DNA of 64,000 nt, taken from positions 12,002-76,001 of the forward strand of contig CAYZNF010000004.1 in the NCBI GenBank assembly GCA_964479725.1, in the 5' to 3' direction. This stretch comes from an uncultured Candidatus Saccharibacteria bacterium. GTDB taxonomy: Bacteria > Patescibacteriota > Minisyncoccia > Minisyncoccales > UBA10102. The number at the start of each line of letters is the position of its first letter. Position 1 is the stretch's first letter. Of the stretch, positions 2 to 62,975 are shown in pieces. The notes beneath the pieces were generated by a model. It made no database searches and was not told the DNA's origin. It was given only the letters and a program-made list of their open reading frames with translations. A program made the translations under genes and the position numbers.

Positions 2-1627
2 CTTATTTTAGCCTTTATTGGCTTAGCAACAATTTTAAGATTGCAAGAATATGCCAATAAAAAGCTCATAGTCAACCTCGTTGTTATTATCCTTTTAATG
101 AATTTCAGCAATGTCCTTGTCGGGTTAGTGGTAGATTTTTCTAATATTATTACCCACTACTTCTTTTCGGCCATCGGAAATTTTGGCGCAGGAAATTTCA
201 ACCAAGTTTTTAGCATTGGAAGCGACTACTTAAGCACTATCGGGTCAAGCGATGAATTGAGCTTGTTGGAAGTTTTTGCTCAAGGAGTTTCGTATGGCTT
301 AGTATCTGCCGTATTCTTCTTGGTATCCGCTCTAGTGTTTTGGGTAGTATTTCTTGTACTACTTCTTCGTATTATTGTTTTATGGCTTCTTGTCATCCTT
401 GCCCCCTTTGCTTTCGCGGCATATATTCTCCCCGGCACAAAGAAGTACTGGAGCCAATGGTGGCAAACTCTTATCCAATGGTCTATTGTCGGCATTCCTA
501 TCGGATTTTTTATGTATATTGCCGGACAAGTAATGGATCTTAAAACTACAGAATTGTTTCCTTCTTCACCCAATATAGGAGGCGAAATTGGGAATATGTC
601 CCAACTATTTACAGCTCTTCTGGCTCCTGCTACGGGCATCTTTCTGCTTATGATAGGTGTGGGAATAAGTATGGCATTTGCCCCGTCAGGAAGCCAAAAA
701 CTAATTGCCTGGGGAAAAGATACGGGCAGAAAAGCCGCGGCCAGAGCGGGCCGACCCCTTGGCGACACAGCAAGAACATGGGCGGCATCACGTCCCGGAT
801 TTAAAAAATTCGCAGAAAAACTCGAGCAAACATCTTCCAGAGACGCCAAAGGAATCGGGAAGTTTGGCATTCGCCCCATTGCTCCTCTTGCAAGATGGGC
901 AGGCAGACAACTGGGTTCTGAAAACCAAGCTACACTAAAGGGGCAAGTCGGCACAGCCGAAACTGCCGCGGCAAAATTGAGCGCAGAAACAGTGGCTTCA
1001 AGATTAAGAGGCAATATATCTGTTCAGGAAAAAATCGGCTACATTAATGCAAAAATTAAAAGCGGAGACATTGACGATCTCATAAAGGCAATGGGTCCTA
1101 ACGGAGAACAAGAGATCCAAAAAATTTATTCGAAAGCAAAGCAAATTGGACAACATAAAGATATCGAGGCAGCTATGCCTCACGCTATCACCCCTACGGA
1201 ATTGCAAGACGCTGCCGTAGCAACAGAAAAAGAAAGACTCATGACGGCAAATCCAGCATGGCCCGAACAACAAGCTGCTACTCAAGCAAGAAATACGGTT
1301 GGCCCCACACATATAATGCAAGAACGCACTAAACGACTAGCGAGCATGAAACCCGATAAAATCAGACAAATGTCAGAAAGCGCATTAAATCATCCGGACA
1401 CTCTCAATGCCATACTGCGAGGATGGGATGGCGGCCAAGTTTCAGCTCTTTATGTCCAACACGGATTTAAAGCTGTTAAGGCTTTGGAGGATAGACTAAG
1501 GGCCTTAACGCCCGCAGGGCAAACGCCGTTAGCTTGGCTCGAAGACCCCAACGGAGGAAATAATGCTAAGCTAGGATATTATTTGGGCAATACAGCTGGC
1601 CGCAGATTGGGTTTCACCATACAGTAA
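2..1627 (+). CDS. Polytopic membrane protein, VirB6/TrbL-like candidate of the T4SS-like cluster (5' end runs off the window)
   Basis: The frame is open from base 2, with no stop upstream of the TTG at 41. The N-terminal ~230 aa are consecutive hydrophobic helices (e.g. LVSAVFFLVSALVFWVVFLVLLLRIIVLWLLVILAPFAFAAYIL), followed by a ~300-aa soluble tail. Neighbours are PrgI-like, VirB4-like and pilin-like genes. Confidence 0.45.
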   Translation, partial: LILAFIGLATILRLQEYANKKLIVNLVVIILLMNFSNVLVGLVVDFSNIITHYFFSAIGNFGAGNFNQVFSIGSDYLSTIGSSDELSLLEVFAQGVSYGLVSAVFFLVSALVFWVVFLVLLLRIIVLWLLVILAPFAFAAYILPGTKKYWSQWWQTLIQWSIVGIPIGFFMYIAGQVMDLKTTELFPSSPNIGGEIGNMSQLFTALLAPATGIFLLMIGVGISMAFAPSGSQKLIAWGKDTGRKAAARAGRPLGDTARTWAASRPGFKKFAEKLEQTSSRDAKGIGKFGIRPIAPLARWAGRQLGSENQATLKGQVGTAETAAAKLSAETVASRLRGNISVQEKIGYINAKIKSGDIDDLIKAMGPNGEQEIQKIYSKAKQIGQHKDIEAAMPHAITPTELQDAAVATEKERLMTANPAWPEQQAATQARNTVGPTHIMQERTKRLASMKPDKIRQMSESALNHPDTLNAILRGWDGGQVSALYVQHGFKAVKALEDRLRALTPAGQTPLAWLEDPNGGNNAKLGYYLGNTAGRRLGFTIQ

Positions 1628-3512: not shown

Positions 3513-3938
3513 ATGCGATTTCAAGTTCCCCAATTCATTGATAGGGAAGCAAGAATCATCGGCCCCCTTACATTCAAGCAATTCGGCTTTATCGGGGGTT
3601 CTGGAGCTTTTGCGTTTGTCTTATATTTCCTCATCCCGTTCCGCCCCCTTTTCCTCGTGCTTGCCCTTATCCTAATTTCCTTTGGACTAAGTCTCGCTTT
3701 TGTACGGGTAAACGGCCGATCTTTTCCTGAATACGTCCTCAACATGCTCCGCTTTAGCACGGGAACCAAAATATACGTGTGGAAAAAAGAAGACGCAAAA
3801 TATTCGGCCGAAGCAAAACAACAGCCAGGCTCCGCAACCACGGAAACATCCGAAACCCTTTCTGCCGTTACCCTTACCAGCAAAAGCAAAATACGGAATT
3901 TGTCCAGTCAAGTAGAAACCCAAAATCCAAACGCGTAA
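3513..3938 (+). CDS. PrgI/VirB3-like small membrane protein
   Basis: MRFQVPQFIDREARIIGPLTFKQFGFIGGSGAFAFVLYFLIPFRPLFLVLALILISFGL matches the PrgI-family pattern as I recall it (VPqFid-e-kiiGpLT-kQf followed by two TM helices). It sits 3 nt upstream of the VirB4 N-terminal ORF. Confidence 0.6.
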   Translation: MRFQVPQFIDREARIIGPLTFKQFGFIGGSGAFAFVLYFLIPFRPLFLVLALILISFGLSLAFVRVNGRSFPEYVLNMLRFSTGTKIYVWKKEDAKYSAEAKQQPGSATTETSETLSAVTLTSKSKIRNLSSQVETQNPNA

Positions 3939-3941
3939 ACA

Positions 3942-4589
3942 ATGGCCGAAACCCCAACCCAACAATTTTTGCCGGTAAGCGAAATAAAACAGGGCGTGCT
4001 AATACTTCGAGATCGGGGGATCCGAGGAGTTTTGATGGTTTCTTCCCAAAACTTTGCTCTAAAATCGCAAGAAGAACAGGACGCCACAATTTACCAATTC
4101 CAAAACTTCTTGAATTCCTTGGATTTTCCCCTCCAAATTACCATGCAATCCCGACGCCTCAACATTACCGGATATTTAGACTACATTAAAAACCTCGAGG
4201 CACAGCAAACAAGCACTCTCCTGCAAAAACAAACCGAGGATTACCGAAAATTCATCAGCCAGCTTATCAGTTCGGGGTCTATTTTGGCAAAAAGCTTTTT
4301 TGTAGTAGTGCCGTTTAGCGGTTTGGAGGTTATTTCCACCGGATCAAAGCAAAGCCTGCTAAAGCGCGGAACACAGGGTTTAGGAAAAATTTCAGATGAG
4401 CAGTTTGAAAGAATGCGATCCCAACTTTGGCAAAGGATGGAGTATGTTGCCCTGGGTTTGAGAAGGGCAGGACTGCATGCCGTACCACTAAACACGGAGG
4501 AGTTAATAGAACTGCTTTGGAGCTGGCATCATCCCCAGGAAGCAGAGGTGGGATATTTCCCATCCATTCCGCCAGAACTTATTACATGA
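3942..4589 (+). CDS. VirB4-like T4SS ATPase, N-terminal segment (215 aa) of a split gene
   Basis: FLPVSEIKQGVLILRDRGIRGVLMVSSQNFALKSQEEQDATIYQFQNFLNSLDFPLQITMQSRRLNI is the characteristic N-domain of Gram-positive/CPR-type VirB4 proteins of ~800 aa. The stop TGA (4587-4589) lies inside the left inverted repeat. Confidence 0.7.
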   Translation: MAETPTQQFLPVSEIKQGVLILRDRGIRGVLMVSSQNFALKSQEEQDATIYQFQNFLNSLDFPLQITMQSRRLNITGYLDYIKNLEAQQTSTLLQKQTEDYRKFISQLISSGSILAKSFFVVVPFSGLEVISTGSKQSLLKRGTQGLGKISDEQFERMRSQLWQRMEYVALGLRRAGLHAVPLNTEELIELLWSWHHPQEAEVGYFPSIPPELIT

Positions 4590-4624
4590 TTCGAATCTAC
4601 GAATGTATTCGAATGCTACGAATA
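4585..4624. repeat. Left inverted repeat of the cassette
   Basis: catgattcgaatctacgaatgtattcgaatgctacgaata. Internally it is two ~18-nt direct subrepeats (attcgaat-c-tacgaat gt attcgaat-gc-tacgaat). Confidence 0.8.
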
Positions 4625-4638
4625 GACAATGCAAAAAC

Positions 4639-5025
4639 ATGAAAGAAACGGTGCTTTATCCAGAATTGTCCTACGCCTTGACCGGAATTTTATTCTTAAC
4701 ACATAACGAACTCGGAAAATACTGCAATGAACAGCAATACGGTGATAAAATTGAAAGTGAATTACACAAGGCCAACATAGTGTATGAAAGAGAGAAAATT
4801 CTGCCAATTTCTTTTGAGGGAGAACAAGCGGGACGAAACAAAGTTGATTTCCTTGTAGCCGACAGGATCATCTTGGAACTAAAAGCGAAACGAATCCTTA
4901 CAAGAGAAGATTATTATCAAGTAAAACGCTATTTAGCCGCACTTGATAAACAACTGGGAATACTAGTAAACTTCAGAGCAGAATACATTGTCCCAAAAAG
5001 AATTCTTCACCCGAGTCATATATGA
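4639..5025 (+). CDS. GxxExxY-family protein (PD-(D/E)XK nuclease-fold superfamily), 128 aa
   Basis: MKETVLYPELSYALTGILFLTHNELGKYCNEQQYGDKIESELHKANIVYEREKILPISFEGEQAGRNKVDFLVADRIILELKAKRILTREDYYQVKRYLAALDKQLGILVNF contains the GxxExxY motif (GKYCNEQQY) and the D...ELK core. I use the start at the ATG at 4639 rather than 4603, which lies inside the repeat. Confidence 0.65.
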   Translation: MKETVLYPELSYALTGILFLTHNELGKYCNEQQYGDKIESELHKANIVYEREKILPISFEGEQAGRNKVDFLVADRIILELKAKRILTREDYYQVKRYLAALDKQLGILVNFRAEYIVPKRILHPSHI

Positions 5026-5035
5026 TTATTTCTTT

Positions 5036-5081
5036 TATTTGTAGCATTCGAATTCATTCGTAGATTCGGATTATCCCCATG
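5036..5081. repeat. Right inverted repeat of the cassette, running into the ATG of the VirB4 C-terminal ORF
   Basis: tatttgtagcattcgaattcattcgtagattcggattatccccatg. It is nearly identical to the solo copy at 51432-51482. Confidence 0.8.
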
Positions 5082-6848
5082 AAACTGCCTTTCTTAAAAA
5101 AACAGCAAATCCCCGAACAGATTTTTTCGACAGCCAAAGTTACCGCGAACGACATTATCGCGCCTTCTTCGATTCGGGTAAATCCTGAATACCTTGAAAT
5201 CAGCGGGCGCATTGCAAAATCATTTTTCGTTTTCTCCTACCCAAGATACCTCACCGACGTTTGGCTCGCCCAGGCAATAAACCTCGACGTTCCTCTCGAC
5301 ATATCTTTATTTATCCATCCCATTGACACGGCCATGATAATGCGCCACTTAAGAAAACGCATTACCGAGGTCCAGGCGGAAATAATGGAAAGGGAAGACA
5401 AGGGACTAATCCGCGATCCCCAGCTTGAAATTGCCTTCCAGGACTTGGAGAGTTTGCGAGATCGCCTGCAAACAGCCCAGGAAAGAATGTTTAAGCTTGG
5501 AATTTACATCACCGCTTATGGCGAAACGCACGATCAGCTTCGCGAAATCGAAACAAACCTGCGCTCCATATTTGAGTCAAAACTTATTTACATAAAACCT
5601 GCCGTTTATCAGCAAAAAGAAGGTTTCAATTCCTGCCTGCCCTACGGCAAAGATTTGCTCAATGTCCACACCGATCTCAATACCGAACCCTTGTCTTCTG
5701 TTTTCCCGTTTGTGTCGTTTGACTTGAGCTCGAACGAAGGAATTTTGTACGGTATAAACCAGCACAACAACTCACTCATACTTTTTGACCGCTTTTCTTT
5801 GCCGAACGCAAACGAAGTGATCTTTGCCGCTTCTGGCGCTGGAAAAAGCTACTACGCTAAACTGCAAATCATCCGCTCGTTAATGACGGGGGTGGATGTG
5901 ATTGTGCTTGATCCTGAAAACGAATACAAAACTTTAAGCCAGGCGGTAGGAGGAAGCTTTTTTAATATTTCTTTGGGTTCTGAAAACCACATTAACCCGT
6001 TTGACCTGTCCCAGCCGCGCGAAGATGAATCCGCCGCCGATGTGCTTCGCAGCAACGTCATTAACCTGGTAGGGCTTATGCGTATTATGCTCGGCGGGCT
6101 AACCCCCGAAGAAGATGCCATTATGGACAGGGCAATTGCCGAAACATACGCGGCAAAAGACATAACTGCCAACTCTGATCCCGCCGCCTGGCCAGATAAA
6201 ATTCCTTTAATGCAGGATCTTGAAGAGGTTTTGCGCACCATGGATCGCGCAGATTCTTTGGTGGAACGCCTTCAGCGCTTTACAAAGGGAACATACTCTA
6301 ATTTCTTTAACCAGCCCACAAATATTTCGCTCGACAATAACCTACTTGTTTTTGGCATACGGGAAATGGAAGACAGCCTGCGGCCAATGGCAATGTACAC
6401 TATTATGCGATACATTTGGAGCAAGGTGCGCTCGGAACTCAAAAAGAGGGTGCTTGTGCTCGACGAAGCCTGGTGGATAATGCAAACGGAAGACGGAGCT
6501 TCGTTCCTTTTCGGGGTTGCCAAACGAGCGCGAAAATATTGGCTTGGAGTTACCACCATTACCCAGGATGTGGGGGATTTTATGCGCTCTGAATACGGAA
6601 AACCCATTATCACCAACTCCTCCATACAAGTGCTAATGAAACAATCGCCCGCGACGATTGACCTGGTCAAAAAATCCTTCAGTCTTACTGGTATGGAAAA
6701 AAATATGCTTCTGGAAACAAATACCGGCGAAGGAATATTTTTTGCCGGCCAAAAGCATGTGGCAATACGCGTCATCGCCTCGCCCTTAGAGCACAGCATA
6801 GTAACCACCAACCCGGAAGAAATACAAGGACTTAAGGAAGCGTTGTAA
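5079..6848 (+). CDS. VirB4-like T4SS ATPase, C-terminal segment (589 aa) of a split gene
   Basis: IAPSSIRVNPEYLEISGRIAKSFFVFSYPRYL (VirB4 middle-domain signature), Walker A AASGAGKSY and Walker B VLVLDEAW. It is in the same reading frame (coordinate mod 3 = 0) as 3942-4589. Confidence 0.8.
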   Translation: MKLPFLKKQQIPEQIFSTAKVTANDIIAPSSIRVNPEYLEISGRIAKSFFVFSYPRYLTDVWLAQAINLDVPLDISLFIHPIDTAMIMRHLRKRITEVQAEIMEREDKGLIRDPQLEIAFQDLESLRDRLQTAQERMFKLGIYITAYGETHDQLREIETNLRSIFESKLIYIKPAVYQQKEGFNSCLPYGKDLLNVHTDLNTEPLSSVFPFVSFDLSSNEGILYGINQHNNSLILFDRFSLPNANEVIFAASGAGKSYYAKLQIIRSLMTGVDVIVLDPENEYKTLSQAVGGSFFNISLGSENHINPFDLSQPREDESAADVLRSNVINLVGLMRIMLGGLTPEEDAIMDRAIAETYAAKDITANSDPAAWPDKIPLMQDLEEVLRTMDRADSLVERLQRFTKGTYSNFFNQPTNISLDNNLLVFGIREMEDSLRPMAMYTIMRYIWSKVRSELKKRVLVLDEAWWIMQTEDGASFLFGVAKRARKYWLGVTTITQDVGDFMRSEYGKPIITNSSIQVLMKQSPATIDLVKKSFSLTGMEKNMLLETNTGEGIFFAGQKHVAIRVIASPLEHSIVTTNPEEIQGLKEAL

Positions 6849-7352: not shown

Positions 7353-8681
7353 ATGCTCCGTATCTCCGCAAAACATATTTTCTTTTTCGCGCTCTTCGCT
7401 GTCGTGGCTTTTTTTATAGTCTCTTCCCCCGCTGTTTTTGCGCAAGAAAATCAACAATCTATTACCTGCGAAGAGGGTAAAAAGGCCTGCGGCGGAAATT
7501 GTATTTCAAGCGATTCGCTTTGTCTCAATCTTCAGTATCCATCTTTTGGAGGATATGATCTCAATACCGACCAAGAGCTCACCAAGTTCATTGCCTGGCT
7601 ATACTATTTCATGATTGGCATTGGCGGATTACTTGCATTTTTGATGCTCACCTGGGGAGGAGTTCAATACCTGTCTTCTGCGGGAAATCCGGGGCAAATT
7701 GGCGACGCAAAAGACAAAATCCAAAAAGCAATTTTCGGCCTTTTGCTTTTGCTTTCCTCCGTTCTCATAATCCAATTGTTCAATCCCGATCTAACTACAA
7801 TCCAAGACCCCGGGGCAAAGAAACTCAAGCTTGGAACGTTTGAGCTAACAAAATCCACCGTAGACATTCCCTACCGATGCAGTCCAATAAGCGGAGCTAA
7901 TCACACCTACCAATGCGCGGGAGGGATTCCTTTGGCTCCAGGACAACCTCCTGTAGATTTTGACTCTTCTGATGTCATTCCTGCTACTTCCTCAGACCCA
8001 GCACATATTTGGCCTGAAGCATGTGTTATAACCTCTGCTCCGGGCGAATACAGCAAATCGTGTGTTGCTGAGTGTTTCCGAGCCGGAGGAGAATCTGGCA
8101 AATTTGGAGAGACGTGGACTTGTTGCAACGTTCCTTCGCCAGAAAATCCGGGGCCCTCAACAACATGCCGCGGTATAACCAAAGGAGAGAACGAAGTTTT
8201 GGTTAGTCTGACTCCTAGTAGCCAAAACATACAACCCCTCATGCAATCTGTTATGCAAAGAGTAAAAGGAGTTTATGCATGCGATGACGTGGGTTGCAGA
8301 ATAGCTTGGAGAAAGTTTACGAAAAGCACTCCAAGGATTTGCAGATCAATTGTTGAGGATTCTTCTCCGTCAAACGATGACTTGTGCACGCAAATAGGTT
8401 CTCTTTATATCAATCAAAATGCAGTTGTCGTGCTTTACGAGGAAGAGAACTATAATGAAAATTATCCGATTTCAGAAAACAAAAAAAGAGTATGCTTTGA
8501 CAACACAAGCGGGAACAATAAACTCATTGCTAATCTAGACGCTATTCAAATTGCCCCTTCCTTTGTCAAAAACAATGGATGGAATGAAGACGCAGATAGT
8601 ATAAAAATACTAGACCCAGGAGATCCGGAAATCGAAAAAGTTTGTCAAAACAAATTTGAAGAGACTCTTCCTTCTCTCTAG
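7353..8681 (+). CDS. T4SS-pilin-like (VirB2/TrbC-type) domain fused to a ~290-aa cysteine-rich C-terminal domain
   Basis: Signal peptide (FFFALFAVVAFFIVSSPAVFAQ), then FIAWLYYFMIGIGGLLAFLMLTWGGVQYLSSAGNPGQIGDAKDKIQKAIFGLLLLLSSVLIIQLFNPDL. This is the two-helix pilin pattern I associate with the CPR T4SS pilin family. By my count the C-terminal part holds 14 Cys. Confidence 0.55.
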   Translation: MLRISAKHIFFFALFAVVAFFIVSSPAVFAQENQQSITCEEGKKACGGNCISSDSLCLNLQYPSFGGYDLNTDQELTKFIAWLYYFMIGIGGLLAFLMLTWGGVQYLSSAGNPGQIGDAKDKIQKAIFGLLLLLSSVLIIQLFNPDLTTIQDPGAKKLKLGTFELTKSTVDIPYRCSPISGANHTYQCAGGIPLAPGQPPVDFDSSDVIPATSSDPAHIWPEACVITSAPGEYSKSCVAECFRAGGESGKFGETWTCCNVPSPENPGPSTTCRGITKGENEVLVSLTPSSQNIQPLMQSVMQRVKGVYACDDVGCRIAWRKFTKSTPRICRSIVEDSSPSNDDLCTQIGSLYINQNAVVVLYEEENYNENYPISENKKRVCFDNTSGNNKLIANLDAIQIAPSFVKNNGWNEDADSIKILDPGDPEIEKVCQNKFEETLPSL

Positions 8682-9693: not shown

Positions 9694-10149
9694 CTATTTT
9701 GGCTTTACAATAATTCTTCGATTTGGCTCCTCGCCAAGGCTTTCTGAAACAACATCATTACGGTCGGCTAGTTCCATATGCACGATCCTCCTCTCCGAAG
9801 GAGGCATAGCTTCCAATTCCCTGGGCTTTTTAAGCAGGGAAACCTCGTCTGCCACTGTTCTGGCAAGCTCGCGCAGGTAGTTTTCCTTGTTTTTCCTGTA
9901 GCCGTTAATATCCATGGTAAGGCGTATAGATTCGCCTGTTTTCTTTTTCATTATGAGCCGCAAAAGGTACTGGATATCAGAAAGCACCGACCCTCTGTCG
10001 CCTATAAACAATTGGGGGTCTTTGGCAACAAGATCAATAGAGTATACTTCGTCTTCAAGCAGGCTTACTTTTACCTCGCCTTCCAGTTCGAGCTTTGAGA
10101 AAAGGGTTTTTGCCTCTTTTTCAATTGTCGAAAGAAAGTTATTGAGCAT
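9694..10149 (-). CDS. jag: Jag/KhpB-type RNA-binding protein (KH + R3H)
   Basis: C-terminal R3H-like MPPSERRIVHMELADRNDVVSESLGEEPNRRIIVKP. It holds the conserved position downstream of yidC. Confidence 0.8.
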   Translation of the reverse strand: MLNNFLSTIEKEAKTLFSKLELEGEVKVSLLEDEVYSIDLVAKDPQLFIGDRGSVLSDIQYLLRLIMKKKTGESIRLTMDINGYRKNKENYLRELARTVADEVSLLKKPRELEAMPPSERRIVHMELADRNDVVSESLGEEPNRRIIVKPK

Positions 10150-10879
10150 TTGCGTTTGCCAAAGCTTTCTCTTTTTTATCGTTCCTGTTCATCCACCAGT
10201 ATTGGGCAATGCTGAATAAATTGCTCACCACCAAATACAAAGCAACTGCCGAGGGCATGCGCATGCCGATAATCACTATGATTACGGGGAAGATAAACAG
10301 CATCTGCTTTTGCATTATGGAGGAAAAATCACCTGTCTGTGTTTTGGCTGTTTGTTTTTTTTGAGGTATTGTCTGTTTTACCTGTATAAATTGGGTAAGC
10401 CCGGCAAGCACGGCAAGCGGAAGAGAGGTTTTTGCCAGATCAACCAAATTTAAAAGCGTGGTGTTGATAACCTCGGGACGCGAGATAAAGCTGTACAATA
10501 AATTCAGCTTGTCTCCGTTAAATCCCTTCCAAAACAATTGGTATAATGCAATCATCACGGGAAGCTGGAGAAGAAGGGGGAGAAAGGAAGCAAAAGGATT
10601 TACCTTCTCTTTTTTATACAGCTCCATTGTCGCCTCGGCGAGCTTCGTCCGGTCTTTTTTGAATTTCGCCCGAATTTCCTCGATCCTTGGCTGGAGCTCT
10701 GCCAACCGTTTTTGGGCTTTCGTGGCTTTGGCGCTCAAGGGATACAGCACGAAACGTATCACTAGCGTCAGCGCAACGACAGCAAGCCCAAAATCACCCA
10801 AGTACTCATAGAGCAAAACAAGGGCGTTAAAAAGGGGGATAAAAAGAACTGTCCGAAAAAAATCTACAATAAGGCTCAT
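10139..10879 (-). CDS. yidC: Membrane protein insertase YidC/Oxa1 family
   Basis: Multi-TM 246-aa protein: LFNALVLLYEYLGDFGLAVVALTLVIRFVLYPLSAKATKAQKRLAELQPRIEEIRAKFKKD. It lies in rnpA-yidC-jag synteny. Confidence 0.85.
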   Translation of the reverse strand: MSLIVDFFRTVLFIPLFNALVLLYEYLGDFGLAVVALTLVIRFVLYPLSAKATKAQKRLAELQPRIEEIRAKFKKDRTKLAEATMELYKKEKVNPFASFLPLLLQLPVMIALYQLFWKGFNGDKLNLLYSFISRPEVINTTLLNLVDLAKTSLPLAVLAGLTQFIQVKQTIPQKKQTAKTQTGDFSSIMQKQMLFIFPVIIVIIGMRMPSAVALYLVVSNLFSIAQYWWMNRNDKKEKALANANAQ

Positions 10880-11241
10880 ACGTTTAATCTAGATGTGGTA
10901 GGTTGCAGTAGCGAAGCTTTTTTGAATGCTTTCCAGGCGATCCTGGCGGCTTCTTCTTCTGTTTTGATTGAAAGCCCGGGCAGAGCAATTATCACTATGT
11001 CCCAGCCGTTGTTAATTTCAGAAATGCGCTTTCGGATTGCTTCGCTTAAAAACCGGCGGATTTGATTTCGCTCCACCGCTTTTTTTGAGACTTTTTTACT
11101 TACAACGACCGCGAACCGGGAAAAGGGAAACTGATTTTCTTTTCTGCGCACAACAATTCCCTCGCTCCGCACGCTGTTGCGACCGCGGAAAACCCGTTCA
11201 AACTCTTTTGTTTTTGTAAGCCGTAAGGCTTTGGGGAGCAT
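10876..11241 (-). CDS. rnpA: Ribonuclease P protein component
   Basis: LRLTKTKEFERVFRGRNSVRSEGIVVRRKEN...FAVVVSKKVSKKAVERNQIRRFLSEAIR. It lies immediately downstream of rpmH. Confidence 0.85.
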   Translation of the reverse strand: MLPKALRLTKTKEFERVFRGRNSVRSEGIVVRRKENQFPFSRFAVVVSKKVSKKAVERNQIRRFLSEAIRKRISEINNGWDIVIIALPGLSIKTEEEAARIAWKAFKKASLLQPTTSRLNV

Positions 11242-11259
11242 TCGAAAGATCGCGCATTA

Positions 11260-11394
11260 TTAAACAGTCAGGCGTTTTCGTCCTTTTTGCCTGCGCTTTG
11301 AAACAATAGTCCGTCCTGTACGGGTTTTGGTCCGCTTTAAGAAACCGTGGGTTCTTTTCCGTTTCTTTTTCCTGGGTTGATATGTTATGCTCAT
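11260..11394 (-). CDS. rpmH: 50S ribosomal protein L34 (44 aa; not in the supplied ORF track)
   Basis: Manual translation of the minus strand gives [44 protein letters not shown] followed by a stop. Confidence 0.9.
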
Positions 11395-11449
11395 AGGCAA
11401 AGTATACTATTTTGCCGTTACCTGGTCAAACGTTCCCTTTCTCACCAGC

Positions 11450-11471
11450 CTATCCCCAGCTTTTCCCCAGC
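11450..11471. promoter_or_regulatory. Two tandem copies of the motif (C/T)T(A/T)TCCCCAGC upstream of dnaA (DnaA-box-like)
   Basis: ctatccccagc (11450-11460) and ttttccccagc (11461-11471). The same motif recurs at 12991-13002 and 13046-13057. Confidence 0.45.
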
Positions 11472-11572
11472 TTCTGCACAGCCTTGGAGCTTTCTTGTTT
11501 ATTTGGCGCGAGATTGCGTTGTGCTATAATGATCCATCATCGTTCTTCAATACAACAGCTAGTCGCAGACTA

Positions 11573-12943
11573 ATGACAAAAGAAGAACTTTGGCAAGCCG
11601 TGCTTGCCCAACTCCAATTTCATATTTCTCCGGCCAATTTTGCCACATGGCTGAAGAATACTTTTATCCTTTCTAAAAAAGGTGGCCAGCTTCTTGTGTC
11701 CGTGCCGAATAATTTTTCGAAAGAGTGGCTCGAAAACAAATATAACAAGCTGATATTTAAGATTTTAAAGGAAACAGACCACGAAATAAAAGAGATTTTA
11801 TATACGGTAGAAAAAGTTCCCCAGAAACCAAAAGAAGCCCCAACTCCCAGCCCAATTTCCCATTCTGCCGCAATGGTCGCGGAGGCGCAGCTTGAATTCC
11901 AGGAATTCAAGGTAAACAAAACCACAAACCTCAACCCAAAATATACTTTTGAGAATTTTATCGTGGGCCCTTTCAATGAATTGGCTAACGCCGCTTCTTT
12001 GGCCATTACCCAGCACCCGGGAACAGTGTACAACCCCCTTTTCGTATACGGGGGAGTGGGGCTGGGCAAAACCCATCTCTTGCAGGCAACAGGCAACAAG
12101 ATAGCAAAGGATTTCCCGGAAAAGAAAGTGCGCTATATTTCTTCGGAACGCTTTACGTCGGGAGTTGTCTCGGCCATCCGCAACCGTACGGTTGATGAAT
12201 TTCGCGTTTCCTACCGCGACATTGATATTTTTATCTTAGACGACGTGCAATTTCTTGCCGGCAAAGACAAAACCCAGGAAGAGCTCTTCCATACGTTTAA
12301 TACCCTGTACGAGCACGGCAAGCAGGTTGTTTTTTCGTCCGACCGGCCGCCAAAATCTATTCCGGCCCTGGAAGAGCGTTTGCGTTCCCGCTTCGAGGGG
12401 GGCATGGTCGCGGACGTCAGCATGCCAGACTACGAAACAAGACTGGCCATTTTGAAATCGAAAATGCAAGAAAAAAACTTTATGCTGGGCGAAGATATAT
12501 GTGAATACATAGCATCGCACATCCAGAGAAACATTAGGGAGCTGGAAGGCGCTCTTAACCGGCTGTATGCGCACTTCAGGCTCATAAACAAGGCGCCAAC
12601 CCTTGTGGATGCTAAATCCGCGCTCAAAACAGTCATACAAAGCCCCAACAAAATGATAAACCATAAGAAAATCATCCAGATTGTGGCTGAATTTTATGAT
12701 ATCAAAGAAAAAGACATTATCGCGCCCTCCCGCAAAAAGGAGGTTGTAAAACCAAGACAGATTGCCATGTACCTGCTCCGCGAAGAATTAAAAAGTTCCT
12801 TTCCCTTTATTGGCAAAAGATTTGGGGGCAAAGATCACACCACAGCAATTTATGCCTGTGAAAAAATTGGGAAAGAAATGCAGGAATCCGAAATTTTGTT
12901 TGATGAAATCAATCTAATAAAACAGAGGATGTACAGTGGATAA
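11573..12943 (+). CDS. dnaA: Chromosomal replication initiator DnaA (456 aa)
   Basis: MTKEELWQAVLAQLQFHISPANFATWLKNT, Walker A GGVGLGKTHLLQA, and C-terminal KPRQIAMYLLREELKSSFPFIGKRFGGKDHTTAIYA. I prefer the start at 11573 because the track start at 11387 would overlap rpmH. TGcTATAAT lies at 11522-11530. Confidence 0.9.
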   Translation: MTKEELWQAVLAQLQFHISPANFATWLKNTFILSKKGGQLLVSVPNNFSKEWLENKYNKLIFKILKETDHEIKEILYTVEKVPQKPKEAPTPSPISHSAAMVAEAQLEFQEFKVNKTTNLNPKYTFENFIVGPFNELANAASLAITQHPGTVYNPLFVYGGVGLGKTHLLQATGNKIAKDFPEKKVRYISSERFTSGVVSAIRNRTVDEFRVSYRDIDIFILDDVQFLAGKDKTQEELFHTFNTLYEHGKQVVFSSDRPPKSIPALEERLRSRFEGGMVADVSMPDYETRLAILKSKMQEKNFMLGEDICEYIASHIQRNIRELEGALNRLYAHFRLINKAPTLVDAKSALKTVIQSPNKMINHKKIIQIVAEFYDIKEKDIIAPSRKKEVVKPRQIAMYLLREELKSSFPFIGKRFGGKDHTTAIYACEKIGKEMQESEILFDEINLIKQRMYSG

Positions 12944-44271: not shown

Positions 44272-44288
44272 CCAGTCGGTGCTTTCAT

Positions 44289-44365
44289 GTCCTCGTAGCT
44301 TAGTGGATAGAGCGCTTCCCTCCCTCTGGGCCGTACGGCCCGACGGGCCGGAGGCCGAAGGAAAG
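44289..44365 (+). pseudogene. tRNA-Arg 5'-half fragment with a 33-nt GC-rich insertion in the anticodon loop
   Basis: 44289-44323 is identical to 44614-44648 (acceptor 5' strand, D arm, 5' anticodon stem, loop CTCC). Next comes ctctgggccgtacggcccgacgggccggaggcc, then gaaggaaag, which matches the tRNA's gaaggaaga at 8 of 9 positions. Homology is then lost. Confidence 0.7.
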
Positions 44366-44374
44366 CTAAATTCC

Positions 44375-44623
44375 ATGTTTTGCGTATATTTACTTCAAAG
44401 CGAAAAAGATAACAGTTTTTATATAGGCCAAACTAATGATTTGGAAAAAAGACTTGCTCGGCATAATAACGGTTTCGTGGTTTCTACAAAAAAGAAGATT
44501 CCTTGGTGTTTGCTTGGGTATGAAAAGTATCAGTCGCGCAATGAGGCGCGATGGCGCGAACACGAATTGAAACAAAGTTATTCGAAAAAGAGAAAGTTTA
44601 TTGAAAGTTTTTTGTCCTCGTAG
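44375..44623 (+). CDS. GIY-YIG nuclease-domain miniprotein (82 aa)
   Basis: MFCVYLLQSEKDNSFYIGQTNDLEKRLARHNNG...WCLLGYEKYQSRNEARWREHELKQ has the GIY...YIG, R and E motif order. The last 10 nt, including the stop, overlap the 5' end of the intact tRNA-Arg. Confidence 0.75.
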   Translation: MFCVYLLQSEKDNSFYIGQTNDLEKRLARHNNGFVVSTKKKIPWCLLGYEKYQSRNEARWREHELKQSYSKKRKFIESFLSS

Positions 44624-44686
44624 CTTAGTGGATAGAGCGCTTCCCTCCGAAGGAAGAGGTCAGAGGTTCAAATCCTCTCGAGGACA
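44614..44686 (+). tRNA. tRNA-Arg (anticodon CCG), 73 nt, no encoded CCA
   Basis: Manual cloverleaf: GTCCTCG TA GCTT AGTGGATA GAGC G CTTCC CTCCGAA GGAAG AGGTC AGAGG TTCAAAT CCTCT CGAGGAC A. Confidence 0.85.
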
Positions 44687-50334: not shown

Positions 50335-51096
50335 ATGAGCTTGGATTTTTTTATTAAAAACCATGGATATGAAACAGCGGGGTTTTGGCTGCCCCGCGTT
50401 ACCACAATCACATCCATTATTTCAAAGCCCAATCTTATCCAATACTATGCCAGGCATAGGAATATTTTTGCCGCCCAGCGCGCTCTGGCTTTGGCCGCCG
50501 ACTGGGGAACGATGGTGCACGAGGGCATTGAAAATGTTTTGCGGGGAGAGTCGTTTGTGATTGATCCTCGCATCTCGCCTTCCGTGTCGGCATTCCGTGT
50601 GTGGATGCGAGAGCATGATATTGAAGTAGTCGGCGAGCATGGAGGCATTGAGAGGCGCGTAACAGATTTGGAACACCGGTATGCGGGCACCATTGATATT
50701 ATAGCGAAGGTGGACGGAAGAGTAGGAGTTATTGATATTAAAACGGGAAGCGGCATTTGGGAAGAATATTATTTGCAGACCGCGGCCTATTTGCACGCAT
50801 ACCAAGAGCATGAGGAAAACAACCTGAAAGATGCTACGCGATGGATTTTGCGCGTGGACCAGTACCAGGAGTGCGAAGGATGTTTAGCCCAAAGGAGAGA
50901 TAAAGACGGCACACAGCACGTCAAGGGAGGGAAGAAATTCTGCAATCACCAATGGACTCCTCCCAAGGCGGATGTTGAGTGGAAAGAGCTTGAAGGATAC
51001 GAACACGATGCCAAAGCTTTTTTGGCGGCAAAGGAGGTGTGGGAATGGTACAATAAAAAATGGCTGCAGAAAATTTCCCTTTATCCCCATCTGTAA
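50335..51096 (+). CDS. PD-(D/E)XK nuclease superfamily protein (RecB/Cas4-like core)
   Basis: GTMVHEGIE, YAGTIDIIAKVDGRVGVIDIKTG (D...D-x-K) and QTAAYLHAY (QxxxY), followed by the Cys cluster CEGC...C. Confidence 0.55.
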   Translation: MSLDFFIKNHGYETAGFWLPRVTTITSIISKPNLIQYYARHRNIFAAQRALALAADWGTMVHEGIENVLRGESFVIDPRISPSVSAFRVWMREHDIEVVGEHGGIERRVTDLEHRYAGTIDIIAKVDGRVGVIDIKTGSGIWEEYYLQTAAYLHAYQEHEENNLKDATRWILRVDQYQECEGCLAQRRDKDGTQHVKGGKKFCNHQWTPPKADVEWKELEGYEHDAKAFLAAKEVWEWYNKKWLQKISLYPHL

Positions 51097-51101
51097 AATA
51101 T

Positions 51102-51428
51102 ATGGCTCAACTAAAACCAATTCTGGGATTTGTGCTGGTGGGCGCGGGAGTGCTGATTATTGGGTATGCCCTGTATTCTTCGCTGATGATTTTCAAGGGC
51201 AAAAATGAACCCCCGCAGATTTTTTCTAGGCCATTAGCAATGCGAACGGCGCAAAACCAGGAAGCGCAGCAGGCCGAAGCCTTATTGCAGGATCAGCTAA
51301 AAGCATATATGCCTCCAGATGCTTTTGCCAGGATGCTCAATCTCGTTTCTTGGTCAATTCTGTCTGGCGTGCTTATCTTGGGCGGCGGGCAGATGGCGGG
51401 CATTGGCGTAAAACTTCTCAAACCCTAA
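51102..51428 (+). CDS. Hypothetical small membrane protein (108 aa)
   Basis: MAQLKPILGFVLVGAGVLIIGYALYSSLMIF plus a C-terminal TM helix. I chose the start at 51102 so that it follows the upstream stop. Confidence 0.45.
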   Translation: MAQLKPILGFVLVGAGVLIIGYALYSSLMIFKGKNEPPQIFSRPLAMRTAQNQEAQQAEALLQDQLKAYMPPDAFARMLNLVSWSILSGVLILGGGQMAGIGVKLLKP

Positions 51429-51431
51429 TTA

Positions 51432-51482
51432 TATTTGTAGCATTCGCATTTATTCGTAGATTCGGATTATCTTTATGAAACT
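51432..51482. repeat. Solo copy of the VirB4-cassette terminal repeat, including the ATGAAACT start
   Basis: tatttgtagcattcgcatttattcgtagattcggattatctttatgaaact differs from 5036-5086 at 5 of 51 positions. It fills the 46-nt gap before the EndoQ-like gene. Confidence 0.8.
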
Positions 51483-52722
51483 TATTGCTGATTTTCATAT
51501 TCATTCCCGATTTTCAAGGGCAACGTCAAAAAGCCTTACTTTGCCAAATCTCGACGAGTGGGCAAAAAAGAAAGGCATTACTGTGATGGGCACGGGTGAT
51601 TTTACCCATCCTGGATGGATAAAAGAAATCAAGGAGCAAATAGAGCCGGCGGAAGAGGGATTGTTTAAATTGCGGGGCAAAAACTCGCCGACCCGATTTC
51701 TTTTTTCAAGCGAAATCAGCTGTATCTATTCAAAGGGCGGAGCAGTGCGAAGAATCCATCTCATTGTTTTGGCTCCTTCCCTGGAGGCTGTAGAGCAAAT
51801 CAACGCGAAACTTGATAAGGTGGGAAATCTAAAGTCCGACGGCAGGCCGATCCTTGGCATTGACGCAAAAGAGATTGCGAAAATTGCCCTTGAAGCTTCC
51901 CCGGATTGCATGGTTATACCTGCCCATGCCTGGACTCCTTGGTTTTCGGTGTTCGGATCAAAATCCGGATTTAATTCAATTGAGGAGTGCTTCGAAGAGT
52001 ACGCGCAATATATCTACGCCATTGAAACGGGTCTTTCATCTGACCCTGCAATGAACTGGCGGCTCTCGACACTTGATAAGATTTCATTTGTTAGCAATTC
52101 AGACAGCCACAGCTTAGAAAAAATCGGAAGGGAGGCAAATGTTTTTGATGTTGATTTGGATTATAGGGGCATTATGGATGCCCTGAAGGCGAAAGATCCA
52201 AAGCGCTTCCTGTTTACCATGGAATTTTTCCCCGAAGAGGGAAAATACCATTACGACGGGCATCGCTTGTGCGGAGTGCGAATGAAGCCGGAAGAATCAA
52301 GGCAGAACAACAGCATTTGTCCCAAATGCAAAAAGCCTCTTACCATAGGCGTGTTGAATCGAGTAGCTGAATTGGCTGACAGGCCCGAAGGTTTTGTGCC
52401 TCAAGGAGCGATTCCCTATAAGAGTCTTATTCCCTTGCAAGAAATCATAGCCGATGTTTTGGAGGTAGGAGTAAGTACGCAGAAAGTAAGAGTCCAGTAC
52501 GAGAAACTCCTTCAAGAAATCGGGAGTGAATTCGATGTGCTGCTTGACGCGTCGGCGGAAGCGCTCAAACGATCAACTCTTTCAGAGATAGCCGAGGGAA
52601 TTTTGCGCGTGCGCGAAGGAAAAGTTGCTATTGAGCCTGGATTTGACGGCGAATACGGCACGATAAAAATTTTTCAGGGCAATGCAAAAGACGTAATTAC
52701 CAAGCAGAAGAACTTATTTTAA
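51475..52722 (+). CDS. Endonuclease Q-like PHP-domain protein
   Basis: MKLIADFHIHSRFSRATSKSLTL...GITVMGTGDFTHPGW (PHP metal ligands) and the zinc-finger-like CPKCKKPLTIGVLNRV. Confidence 0.6.
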   Translation: MKLIADFHIHSRFSRATSKSLTLPNLDEWAKKKGITVMGTGDFTHPGWIKEIKEQIEPAEEGLFKLRGKNSPTRFLFSSEISCIYSKGGAVRRIHLIVLAPSLEAVEQINAKLDKVGNLKSDGRPILGIDAKEIAKIALEASPDCMVIPAHAWTPWFSVFGSKSGFNSIEECFEEYAQYIYAIETGLSSDPAMNWRLSTLDKISFVSNSDSHSLEKIGREANVFDVDLDYRGIMDALKAKDPKRFLFTMEFFPEEGKYHYDGHRLCGVRMKPEESRQNNSICPKCKKPLTIGVLNRVAELADRPEGFVPQGAIPYKSLIPLQEIIADVLEVGVSTQKVRVQYEKLLQEIGSEFDVLLDASAEALKRSTLSEIAEGILRVREGKVAIEPGFDGEYGTIKIFQGNAKDVITKQKNLF

Positions 52723-62268: not shown

Positions 62269-62307
62269 AACTACGAAATCTTGCATATGCAGTAAATCGT
62301 AGTAGTA
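62269..62307. repeat. Palindromic element with a GCATATGC core (left copy)
   Basis: aactacgaaatcttGCATATGCagtaaatcgtagtagta. The arms actacga/tcgtagt can pair. Confidence 0.55.
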
Positions 62308-62314
62308 TGGATTT

Positions 62315-62887
62315 GTGAGTAAGTACAAATATTATTTGAAGAAACCTAAATCTGAAATTACCAAAGATATCCTTATATGGATTATGGCAGGAGGGTTGAT
62401 CGCGATTGCGGCTACTTCCCCCTATTTTGGCACCAACCTTGTGAGAGAATTTCGAAAGCGTAAACATTACGATAGAAAGAAAGTATATGATACATTCTTC
62501 AGACTGCAACGACAGGGATATCTTCAGATTACGAAGCGCAATCGCCAGATTTATATTTCTCTTACCGAGGAAGGCAGAAAGAAAGCGGGAAGGTTTCAGA
62601 TTAATTCTTTAGAAATCCATAAGCCAAAACACTGGGATGGAAAATGGAGGATTGTATTGTTTGATATCGAAAATTCAAAAGACATCAAGAGAGAGGCTTT
62701 GCGCGGAAAATTGAAGGAGTTAGGTTTTTACCTTTACCAAAAGAGCGTATGGATACACCCCTTTGAGTGCAATGATGAGGCAGAGCTTTTAAAAGAGTTT
62801 TTCGGTCTTACCGATAGCGAAATTTGTCTTATTGTTGCTGAAAGAATCTCAAACGAGAAGGTGGTCAAGGATTACTTCGGGCTATAA
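62315..62887 (+). CDS. PaaX-like / Cas2-fold regulatory-domain protein with an N-terminal TM segment (190 aa)
   Basis: ILIWIMAGGLIAIAATSP (TM), wHTH-like VYDTFFRLQRQGYLQITKRNRQIYISLTEEGRKKA, then WDGKWRIVLFDIENSKDIKREALRGKLKELGFYLYQKSVWIHPF, the PaaX central-domain pattern. GTG start. Confidence 0.5.
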   Translation: MSKYKYYLKKPKSEITKDILIWIMAGGLIAIAATSPYFGTNLVREFRKRKHYDRKKVYDTFFRLQRQGYLQITKRNRQIYISLTEEGRKKAGRFQINSLEIHKPKHWDGKWRIVLFDIENSKDIKREALRGKLKELGFYLYQKSVWIHPFECNDEAELLKEFFGLTDSEICLIVAERISNEKVVKDYFGL

Positions 62888-62898
62888 TTTTAAACGCG

Positions 62899-62937
62899 AC
62901 TACTACGAAAATATGCATATGCGGTTTTTAGTAGTAC
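62899..62937. repeat. Palindromic element with a GCATATGC core (right copy)
   Basis: actactacgaaaatatGCATATGCggtttttagtagtac, related to 62269-62307. Confidence 0.55.
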
Positions 62938-62975
62938 TTTAGTTAAAAGCTGGCGATTGAAAATATAGGGGGAAA

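Follow-up and report, generated by a model that had tools for sequence, protein, structure and literature searches.

The VirB4 gene pair and the insert between its members

We analysed 64,000 nucleotides (nt) of contig CAYZNF010000004.1 (assembly GCA_964479725.1, an uncultured Candidatus Saccharibacteria bacterium), hereafter the window, in which two genes for the parts of a VirB4 ATPase lie on either side of a small cassette: a nuclease-fold open reading frame (ORF) of the GxxExxY family between inverted repeats (table 1). The original prediction, made from the sequence alone, had identified the two flanking ORFs as the N-terminal domain (N-half) and the ATPase part (C-half) of VirB4, and profile searches agreed. 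The N-half, of 215 amino acids (aa), matched positions 104-216 of the VirB4 model NF045975 (E=1e-8) and was collinear with residues 1-215 of P0063, an unsplit VirB4 of 804 aa; the local Pfam copy gave no match for it, and orthologues do carry PF26593. The C-half, of 589 aa, scored 377 bits against the CD1110-type VirB4 model NF045971 (cut-off 325; model positions 180-733) and 83 bits against the Pfam family P-loop_TraG, PF19044 (cut-off 25.8). It is identical to P0001, named in one source as Candidatus Wildermuthbacteria (Parcubacteria), of the candidate phyla radiation (CPR). Fused in silico, the two ORFs aligned to P0063 without a gap across the junction. VirB4 is present here as two genes and not as one polypeptide of ~750-800 aa; the pair belongs to the family in split form.

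Table 1. Features of the VirB4 locus and related positions in the window (T4SS, type IV secretion system).
Feature	Position	Strand	Remarks
TrbL/VirB6-like gene	41-1627		T4SS-like cluster
PrgI-family gene	3513..3938	+	PF12666; upstream member of the same T4SS-like operon
VirB4 N-terminal-domain gene (TraC-like, 215 aa)	3942..4589	+	ORF; match to N-terminal part of NF045975; orthologues are separate genes
ATGA including the N-half stop TGA (4587-4589)	4586..4589	+	Left copy of the ancestral overlap or start of the terminal unit
Left arm, four ATRCNAAT-type units (ATGATTCGAAT, CTACGAAT, GTATTCGAAT, GCTACGAAT)	4586..4624	+	Inverted repeat
GxxExxY / PDDEXK_3 nuclease-fold ORF (128 aa from ATG 4639)	4639..5025	+	TIGR04256, PF13366
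Right arm, inverted copy of left arm	5036..5074	+	Pairs with left arm in RNA folds
CCCC spacer and ATGA (native C-half start, right ATGA copy)	5075..5082	+
VirB4 ATPase gene (middle and P-loop domains, 589 aa)	5079..6848	+	NF045971, PF19044
T4SS pilin-domain gene	7353-8681		T4SS-like cluster
Solo right-arm copy	51429..51474	+	Fills the spacer from the stop of ORF 51060-51428 to ATG 51475
Predicted cassette-free form of the window junction			...TTACATGAAACTG...

The inverted-repeat arms are 39 nt long and 90% complementary; a 35-nt core with 3 mismatches did not occur in any of 100 shuffles. With a G+C content of 36.6%, the insert differs from the flanking VirB4 halves (45-46%), and the VirB4 frame is interrupted by stops within it. 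The left arm includes the TGA of the N-half among its first bases, and the ATG of the C-half lies 4 nt past the right arm, so that the junction reads ...TTAC ATGA TTCGAAT...GGATTATCCCC ATGA AACTGCC..., with (C)ATGA flanking the cassette on both sides. The arms paired in both the minimum-free-energy and the centroid RNA folds (z=-3.8).

The prediction that the stop codon of the N-half comes from the repeat holds in so far as the TGA is part of the first unit of the left arm. Its origin is ambiguous, as judged from the sequence, because ATGA is the ancestral overlap of the two genes and also the first 4 bases of the terminal unit. In the cassette family, unit boundaries read AAT-GA-TGC or AAT-AA-TGC, so that TGA and TAA abound in the left arm by its very make-up. 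The terminal unit, for which the right arm and a solo copy of that arm elsewhere in the window have ATAAT, holds a stop there as well.

As predicted, no recognised transposase (DDE, HUH, serine or tyrosine) was found in the cassette, whose only ORF encodes the PD-(D/E)XK-fold protein, and no recombinase was present near it among the ORFs and profile matches of the window. Neither a promoter nor a terminator of its own exceeded shuffle expectation. A search of positions 4300-5400 gave no match to any Rfam family, introns included, at E<=1; a group I or II intron, a ribozyme and an intein were rejected on this ground and for the stops that the insert carries in the VirB4 frame.

The VirB4 split is found in relatives that lack the cassette

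We searched the fused 804-aa query against 5.8 billion proteins and examined the best 120 matches. All but one (119/120) were C-half-only proteins, 70-77% identical over the C-terminal ~72% of the query; they were 555-634 aa long, apart from an intein-bearing protein of 1264 aa. The sole full-length match among the 120 was 56% identical. The intein-bearing protein (P0036, the VirB4 C-half of a relative) has LAGLIDADG and intein-splicing domains directly after the GKS of its Walker A motif, so that a second kind of selfish element occupies this ATPase gene family, at another site than the cassette.

Junction DNA was then compared in eight distinct relatives of at least 70% identity (L numbers denote loci). 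In five of them (L001/L002, L003, L004-L006, L210 and L211), the N and C genes are adjacent and insert-free, with an N gene of 212-223 aa. In the first three, the TGA of a TraC-like gene of 212-220 aa and the start codon of the ATPase gene share bases (ATGA); L211 has a TAATG overlap and L210 a TAA, one spacer base and the ATG. The empty sites read ...AAAC ATGA AACTGCCG... in L004, where AACTG follows ATGA as in the window, ...TAAA ATGA AAATC... in L001, and ...TAAT ATGAAACTGCC... in L210. Since ATGAAACTGCC occurs at the empty sites of both L004 and L210, the start codon and first codons of the C-half are native, and the right repeat did not donate the ATG as had been predicted. The variety of empty-junction forms (ATGA, TAATG, TAAT-ATG) fits a long-standing split. 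Close relatives thus have two VirB4 genes here and no repeats, a condition that the original prediction had itself named as refuting; together with the predominance of C-half-only homologues, this contradicts its claim that the cassette split a VirB4 of ~800 aa. As far as these alignments can tell, the ancestor of the window C-half was almost certainly already split.

An orthologous GxxExxY cassette occupies the N/C junction in L207-L209, another Wildermuthbacteria genome; its protein is 86% identical (BLASTP) and its arms are of the same type, ~85% identical by eye. Among the eight relatives, only L207 shares an N/C cassette of this type with the window. Its stop-to-ATG spacer measures 482 nt compared with 489 in the window, and its two VirB4 halves lie in different frames. 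This bears on the common frame of the window halves, which the original prediction had emphasized. Both ORF starts are divisible by 3, and the segment between the last sense codon of the N-half and the ATG of the C-half (4587-5078) is indeed 492 nt, or 164 codons. The significance given to these figures did not hold up: a shared frame is expected by chance in one case in three, and here it is accidental because the addition of 493 nt (1 mod 3) to an ATGA overlap brings into register two frames that had differed by one base, and because the halves in L207 are out of frame.

The closest relative sampled, L212 (C-half 76% identical), has a 75-nt spacer (213-287) without an ORF exactly at the N/C junction; it contains inverted GGAATGT/ACATTCC units, and the N-half ends TAA TGA TAG.

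The cassette protein has a nuclease fold

The longest form of the cassette ORF (4603-5025) starts inside the left arm, and the NCBI record P0121 starts at 4639. The protein scored 79 bits against TIGR04256 (GxxExxY; cut-off 35) and 85 bits against PF13366 (PDDEXK_3; cut-off 22), in agreement with the predicted insert of this type bounded by inverted repeats. Residues D70, E80 and K82 are invariant across 32 homologues (59-84% identical, from several phyla), and the AlphaFold2 model of the 128-aa protein has an alpha-beta core with a pLDDT of 92.5. Because of these invariant residues and the confidently predicted fold, the protein is probably a catalytically active nuclease. Foldseek gave only weak matches in the PDB (TM about 0.5), the best being Cas4 SSO0001, LHK-Exo (lambda-exonuclease-like) and the AddAB nuclease; tRNA-splicing endonucleases were weak fold matches at most, and a sequence search of the PDB gave no match. 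The fold resembles those of Cas4 and RecB, and no closely related solved structure was found.

Hundreds of homologues of 59-84% identity were found in Wildermuth-, Giovannoni-, Roizman-, Wolfe-, Staskawicz-, Doudna-, Magasanik- and other CPR bacteria, the best non-orthologous one being 70% identical. Identity as a defence gene or a phage gene was considered and dropped: PADLOC returned weak Cas4-like matches only, PHROGs a single matching family of unknown function, and 50,697 phage records no match. The function of PF13366 is given as 'Unknown' by Steczkiewicz et al. 2012 (PMC3424549).

GxxExxY cassettes form a family across CPR genomes

We scanned one genome per species, which gave 80 loci in many CPR phyla, and tblastn found 86 cassettes in them. 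Nearly all 86 have inverted arrays of short units on both sides, and the flanking inverted repeat scored >=14 in 58. Both flanks show a 17-fold enrichment of the motif CGAAT, which is inverted between the two sides. From 578 units we derived the consensus ATRCNAAT, with a spacing of 8-11 nt and about four units per arm; the unit type differs between cassette lineages. Exact arm complementarity decays (15% mismatches), and the 8-nt unit is kept across phyla. Orthologous cassettes have been kept at the same site across species in three sets (L008-L011 with L020; L018, L023 and L031; the window and L207), and two to three GxxExxY copies lie within 5 kb in L019, L050, L076 and L082.

The position of the cassettes relative to their neighbours is also regular. 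Both neighbours are co-oriented with the cassette in 62 of 78 cases, and the median spacers, 58 nt upstream and 52 nt downstream, are nearly filled by the arrays. The core of the first unit lies <=2 nt from the upstream stop in half of the cassettes scored (24/48), and the downstream ATG usually follows the last unit core by 4-10 nt. An upstream ATGA is present at 14 of 49 cassettes, compared with 9.5% of background stops. ATGA stands on both sides in L015, L024, L027 and others as well; the same four bases open the terminal unit. In the literature collection searched, neither GxxExxY cassettes nor their repeats are described, and the family is apparently both large and undescribed.

Metagenomes scanned for exact matches to the arm motif of the window yielded 81 sites. 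Of these, 28 are hairpins without room for an ORF and 29 are one-sided arrays; at three (L129, L141 and L151) a GxxExxY ORF lies beside the matched arm. In L145 (1556-2152, minus strand), an IS200-like Y1 transposase gene, resembling REP-associated tyrosine transposases (RAYTs; REP, repetitive extragenic palindromic sequence), is nested with its own GC-rich REPs (CAAGGGCGCCCCTTG) inside CGAAT-unit arms. Hairpin loops may offer other small selfish genes a place to insert. The RAYT-like genes of L145, L094, L063 and L143 are each flanked by GC-rich palindromes of their own, and we therefore rejected a RAYT as the mobilizer of the CGAAT arms.

No further full cassette was found in the 64,000-nt window, which holds only the solo right-arm copy. 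Its alignment with the cassette end (51429-51482 against 5033-5086) is 89% identical over 54 nt and extends into ATGAAACT. The ORF downstream (51475-52722) is PHP-domain-like, as judged from its N-terminus MKLIADFHIHS alone. The octamer ATGAAACT constitutes the first 8 nt of the VirB4 C-half and also follows the solo arm; by rough estimate, a chance match has a probability of ~1-2%. The shared octamer could reflect a target preference of the element lineage or be the remnant of a second cassette.

Cassettes have entered the T4SS-like operon repeatedly

Five of the 80 primary GxxExxY cassettes occupy a junction of the PrgI-VirB4N-VirB4C cluster, and in a sixth locus (L067) the cassette lies ~1.3 kb upstream of PrgI. 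By a rough estimate that assumes ~800 genes per genome and about three such junctions, chance alone would place ~0.3 of the 80 there; the count is biased in that the loci were picked for similarity to a query taken from this very operon. The PrgI/N junction, empty in the window, is occupied in L015, L047, L050, L066 and L082, and the N/C junction in L050 and L082. Among the junction cassette proteins, only those of the window and L207 (86%) are mutual best matches; the others are nearest to cassettes at unrelated loci. Orthology of same-junction cassettes across lineages was therefore rejected except for this pair, and since such proteins are not each other's closest relatives, they stem from independent insertions into existing junctions.

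In L050 (590-3010, Parcubacteria), three junctions in a row hold GxxExxY-type cassettes, namely the one ahead of PrgI, the PrgI/VirB4N junction and the VirB4N/VirB4C junction. Identity between the first and the second of these cassettes is 57%, and both have the outer ends CCCTACG...CGTAGGG. Other cargo is found at the same places: ORFs of PF05635, the protein family of 23S rRNA intervening sequences, stand before PrgI in L001 (516-884) and L210 (988-1371) and between PrgI and VirB4N in L001 (1328-1714). Each of the two in L001, where the repeats were checked, is flanked by ~30-nt inverted repeats of its own sub-repeat (AGTATTT-type and ATTGTT-type). These units have the same architecture as the GxxExxY cassettes, with another cargo and another unit.

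Surroundings of the operon and other elements of the window

Beyond the genes in table 1, the T4SS-like cluster is followed by Jag/R3H, YidC, RnpA and DnaA, as identified from translations and from Pfam calls at syntenic positions in relatives. In the window (9694-12943) and in the same region of L001, L003, L004 and L210, the cluster adjoins jag/R3H, yidC, rnpA, (rpmH) and dnaA, and in every relative examined it lies beside the presumed origin of replication.

Two further repeat-bearing regions were noticed. At 62270-62948, near-palindromic repeats of 37 nt, ACTACGAAA...TCGTAGTAGT, which are of a type unlike the GxxExxY arms, enclose a 190-aa ORF (62315-62887) that combines a PaaX central Cas2-like domain with a PadR-like winged helix. 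At 44283-44648, a stretch of 41 nt recurs 325 nt away with 95% identity; the two copies resemble the 5' portions of tRNA genes (GTCCTCGTAGCTTAGTGGATAGAGCGC...), and a GC-rich palindrome follows at 44314-44355.

Insertion into an existing junction and alternative histories

Taken together, these results are best read as an insertion of the cassette into a pre-existing stop-start junction that left both VirB4 genes intact, by a member of a large CPR family of the same anatomy that has repeatedly and independently entered junctions of this operon. We give this reading a probability of about 0.8. Among the explanations offered with the original prediction, a tolerated selfish insertion comes closest to it; both VirB4 pieces look intact. 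Two observations weigh against it. Removing the segment defined by the inverted repeat (4586-5074; 489 nt or 163 codons) leaves one open reading frame, and loss of the sequence from one ATGA copy to the other would give exactly the ATGA overlap of the relatives. Further observations weigh against the mechanism considered below. A downstream ATGA accompanies an upstream one in 8 of 13 cassettes and is present in 17 of the 38 that lack an upstream ATGA, so a duplication of ATGA does not appear to be general. Arm mismatches compatible with G-U pairing are not significantly in excess in the sense RNA (70, against 56 in the antisense; p=0.25). A near-identical second full copy was found neither in the window nor in the protein database, which weighs on recent mobility. 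Other cargo between such arms (a RAYT in L145, DUF498 in L131) suggests that the arms may be independent of the nuclease. Finally, in compact CPR genomes any intergenic insertion abuts a stop and a start, and special targeting may be unneeded.

The first two of these points belong to a self-consistent history of 'cassette first, scar later', in which the cassette split an intact virB4 of ~800 aa, its terminal unit gave the TGA, an internal Met became the new start and the ATGA overlap of the relatives is a deletion scar. The unsplit 804-aa homologue that aligns without a gap across the junction is in keeping with it, as are the terminal units AT(A/G)AT, which always carry TAA or TGA, the occupation of this junction in at least three lineages, and the phage precedents of mobE in nrdA of Aeh1 and mobA in T4 gene 39/60 (PMC2988022). 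We nevertheless regard such a history as improbable. The window C-half is 70-77% identical to split-type proteins and only 56% to the unsplit one, the empty junctions take several forms where a single scar would be expected, and the common frame is missing in the orthologous L207. The N/C cassettes are not orthologous, so that most of them entered an existing junction. The strongest argument comes from the PrgI/VirB4N junction, which was never one gene and is equally often occupied. Less probable still is a programmed element, an excisable DNA switch or an RNA intervening sequence that is removed to restore one VirB4 message or protein. The arms do fold into a long stem that resembles what RNase III cuts in 23S rRNA intervening sequences (10.1101/2024.02.27.582315), and the halves do share a frame in the window. 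That phase is not conserved in L207, however, neither a recombinase nearby nor an intron or other Rfam family in 4300-5400 was found, and the D...ExK motif is of the metal-dependent DNase type and not that of a splicing endonuclease. Since relatives make the two proteins without an insert, there is nothing to regenerate, and neither the excisable switch nor the programmed split of the original prediction is supported.

A more serious competitor, which we consider unlikely overall but well above the two preceding ones, concerns what moves the cassette. The unit arrays could be a hairpin family of their own, like REPs and the hairpin-forming REP doublets (REPINs) or like miniature inverted-repeat transposable elements (MITEs), that is tolerated or domesticated for mRNA stability or processing and moved by another enzyme or by recombination, with the GxxExxY ORF as a frequent passenger. 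The 28 hairpins and 29 one-sided arrays without an ORF, the foreign cargo in L145 and L131, the solo arm of the window and the ORF-less hairpin of another unit type at the L212 junction all suit such a family, and its cross-species persistence at the same site resembles that of domesticated REPIN systems. Seen from the protein side, however, the association is nearly obligatory, with the 17-fold enrichment of CGAAT around the 86 cassettes, and the unit type varies with the cassette lineage. The RAYT-like genes have GC-rich REPs of their own and would not mobilize CGAAT arrays, and no other candidate enzyme was found. That the nuclease itself is the mobilizing enzyme of the cassette we propose tentatively, at less than even odds. 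The 8-nt unit recurs about once per helical turn and is kept across phyla while arm complementarity decays, which suggests a putative protein-binding site, and the enclosed nuclease is the obvious candidate to bind it.

A possible mechanism and its implications

Returning to insertion into an existing junction, we envisage the following course. In Wildermuthbacteria and related Parcubacteria, VirB4 is the product of two adjacent genes (~215-aa N-domain and ~590-aa ATPase) that are probably translationally coupled. A cassette of ~490 nt, with the nuclease ORF between two inverted four-unit arrays, has entered the junction ...TTAC ATGA AACTG... to give ...TTAC ATGA [TTCGAAT...GGATTATCCCC ATGA] AACTG... 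Because the cassettes of the family mostly share the strand of the genes beside them, and because no promoter or terminator excess was found, we infer that the cassette, without a promoter or terminator of its own, is transcribed by read-through of the operon. Translation of the N-half would end at the TGA of the first unit. The arms of the transcript could pair into a stem of ~39 bp that brings the N-half stop and the C-half ATG to one helix base, making the two codons, which once overlapped, spatial neighbours again. Translation of the C-half might then continue by re-initiation across the stem, or after cleavage of the stem as in rRNA intervening sequences. The nuclease may recognize the repeated units and thereby spread or maintain the cassette, in the manner of a free-standing homing endonuclease or of a transposon, and the ORF-less hairpins would be its non-autonomous relatives. 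The recurrent independent occupation of one junction is compatible with homing cleavage of a cassette-free allele.

In its full form, the proposal is that GxxExxY genes and their ATRCNAAT arms make up an undescribed family of CPR mobile elements, with full cassettes as autonomous and hairpins as non-autonomous members, which targets the stop-start junctions of operons and whose stem preserves translational coupling across ~490 nt. We hold this combination to be rather unlikely as a whole, less probable than the hairpin family but more probable than a split of virB4 by the cassette. If it is true, coupling kept by the stem would explain the build-up of elements in essential operons such as the T4SS-like cluster. 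A stem that juxtaposes stop and start is in any case a testable idea for how operon translation tolerates insertions. If the nuclease and its arrays propagate themselves, they would be a PD-(D/E)XK counterpart to RAYT/REPIN systems and to the free-standing homing endonucleases of phages, and the large GxxExxY family would gain a function. Tiny, gene-dense CPR genomes still hold many nuclease cassettes and hairpins exactly between stop and start codons. For annotation, VirB4 is a two-gene ATPase here, and pipelines should not call a disrupted gene or pseudogene. Once explained, the locus itself is ordinary; the interest lies in the family pattern, the recurrent targeting of the operon and the unexplained match of ATGAAACT.

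Comparison with known systems

The VirB4 pair has the domain order of CD1110-type, Gram-positive-type VirB4 proteins (TraC/TrsE-like), has both Walker motifs intact (A, GAGKS; B, VLVLDEAW), and is likewise clustered with PrgI-like, TrbL/VirB6-like and T4SS-pilin genes. It differs in that this clade uses two genes for it, the break falling in a poorly conserved linker behind the ~215-aa N-domain.

The cassette family has terminal inverted repeats in common with insertion sequences and MITEs; a recognised transposase was not found. REP/REPIN-RAYT systems and MITEs also share with it the short inverted repeats around a single enzyme gene, the many ORF-less doublets that form intergenic hairpins, and the persistence of sites across species. 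Unlike a RAYT, however, the cassette enzyme is not an HUH/Y1 transposase, RAYT-like genes in the metagenomes have different REPs, and the cassette arms consist of about four 8-nt units and not of one imperfect palindrome. Intervening sequences of 23S rRNA (PF05635, 23S_rRNA_IVP) likewise have an optional small ORF between complementary arms that form a long transcript stem, their flanking parts work without removal, and PF05635 ORFs sit in the same T4SS-operon junctions in L001 and L210. There the insertions are in rRNA helices, whereas here they lie between protein-coding genes, the cargo is a nuclease-fold protein and the arms are built from conserved 8-nt units instead of arbitrary complementary sequence. 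The resemblance to both systems is architectural only.

The closest known situation is that of the free-standing homing endonuclease genes (seg/mob, 'intronless homing') of T-even phages, even though their host is a phage and not a CPR bacterial chromosome, their enzymes are of the GIY-YIG or HNH type, where a PD-(D/E)XK fold of the GxxExxY family is predicted here, and they lack the terminal inverted repeats and ORF-less hairpin relatives that the cassette family has. Those genes occupy intergenic spacers, often over the upstream stop, and in three cases stand between the halves of a split gene; for gene 43 of phage 25, the review itself proposes the invasion of a gene that was already split (PMC2988022). 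Like the cassettes, they are small nuclease ORFs, free of intron and intein, in a tiny spacer between conserved operon genes; they are present in some relatives and absent in others, rely on host transcription, and often overlap or abut the stop codon of their neighbour.

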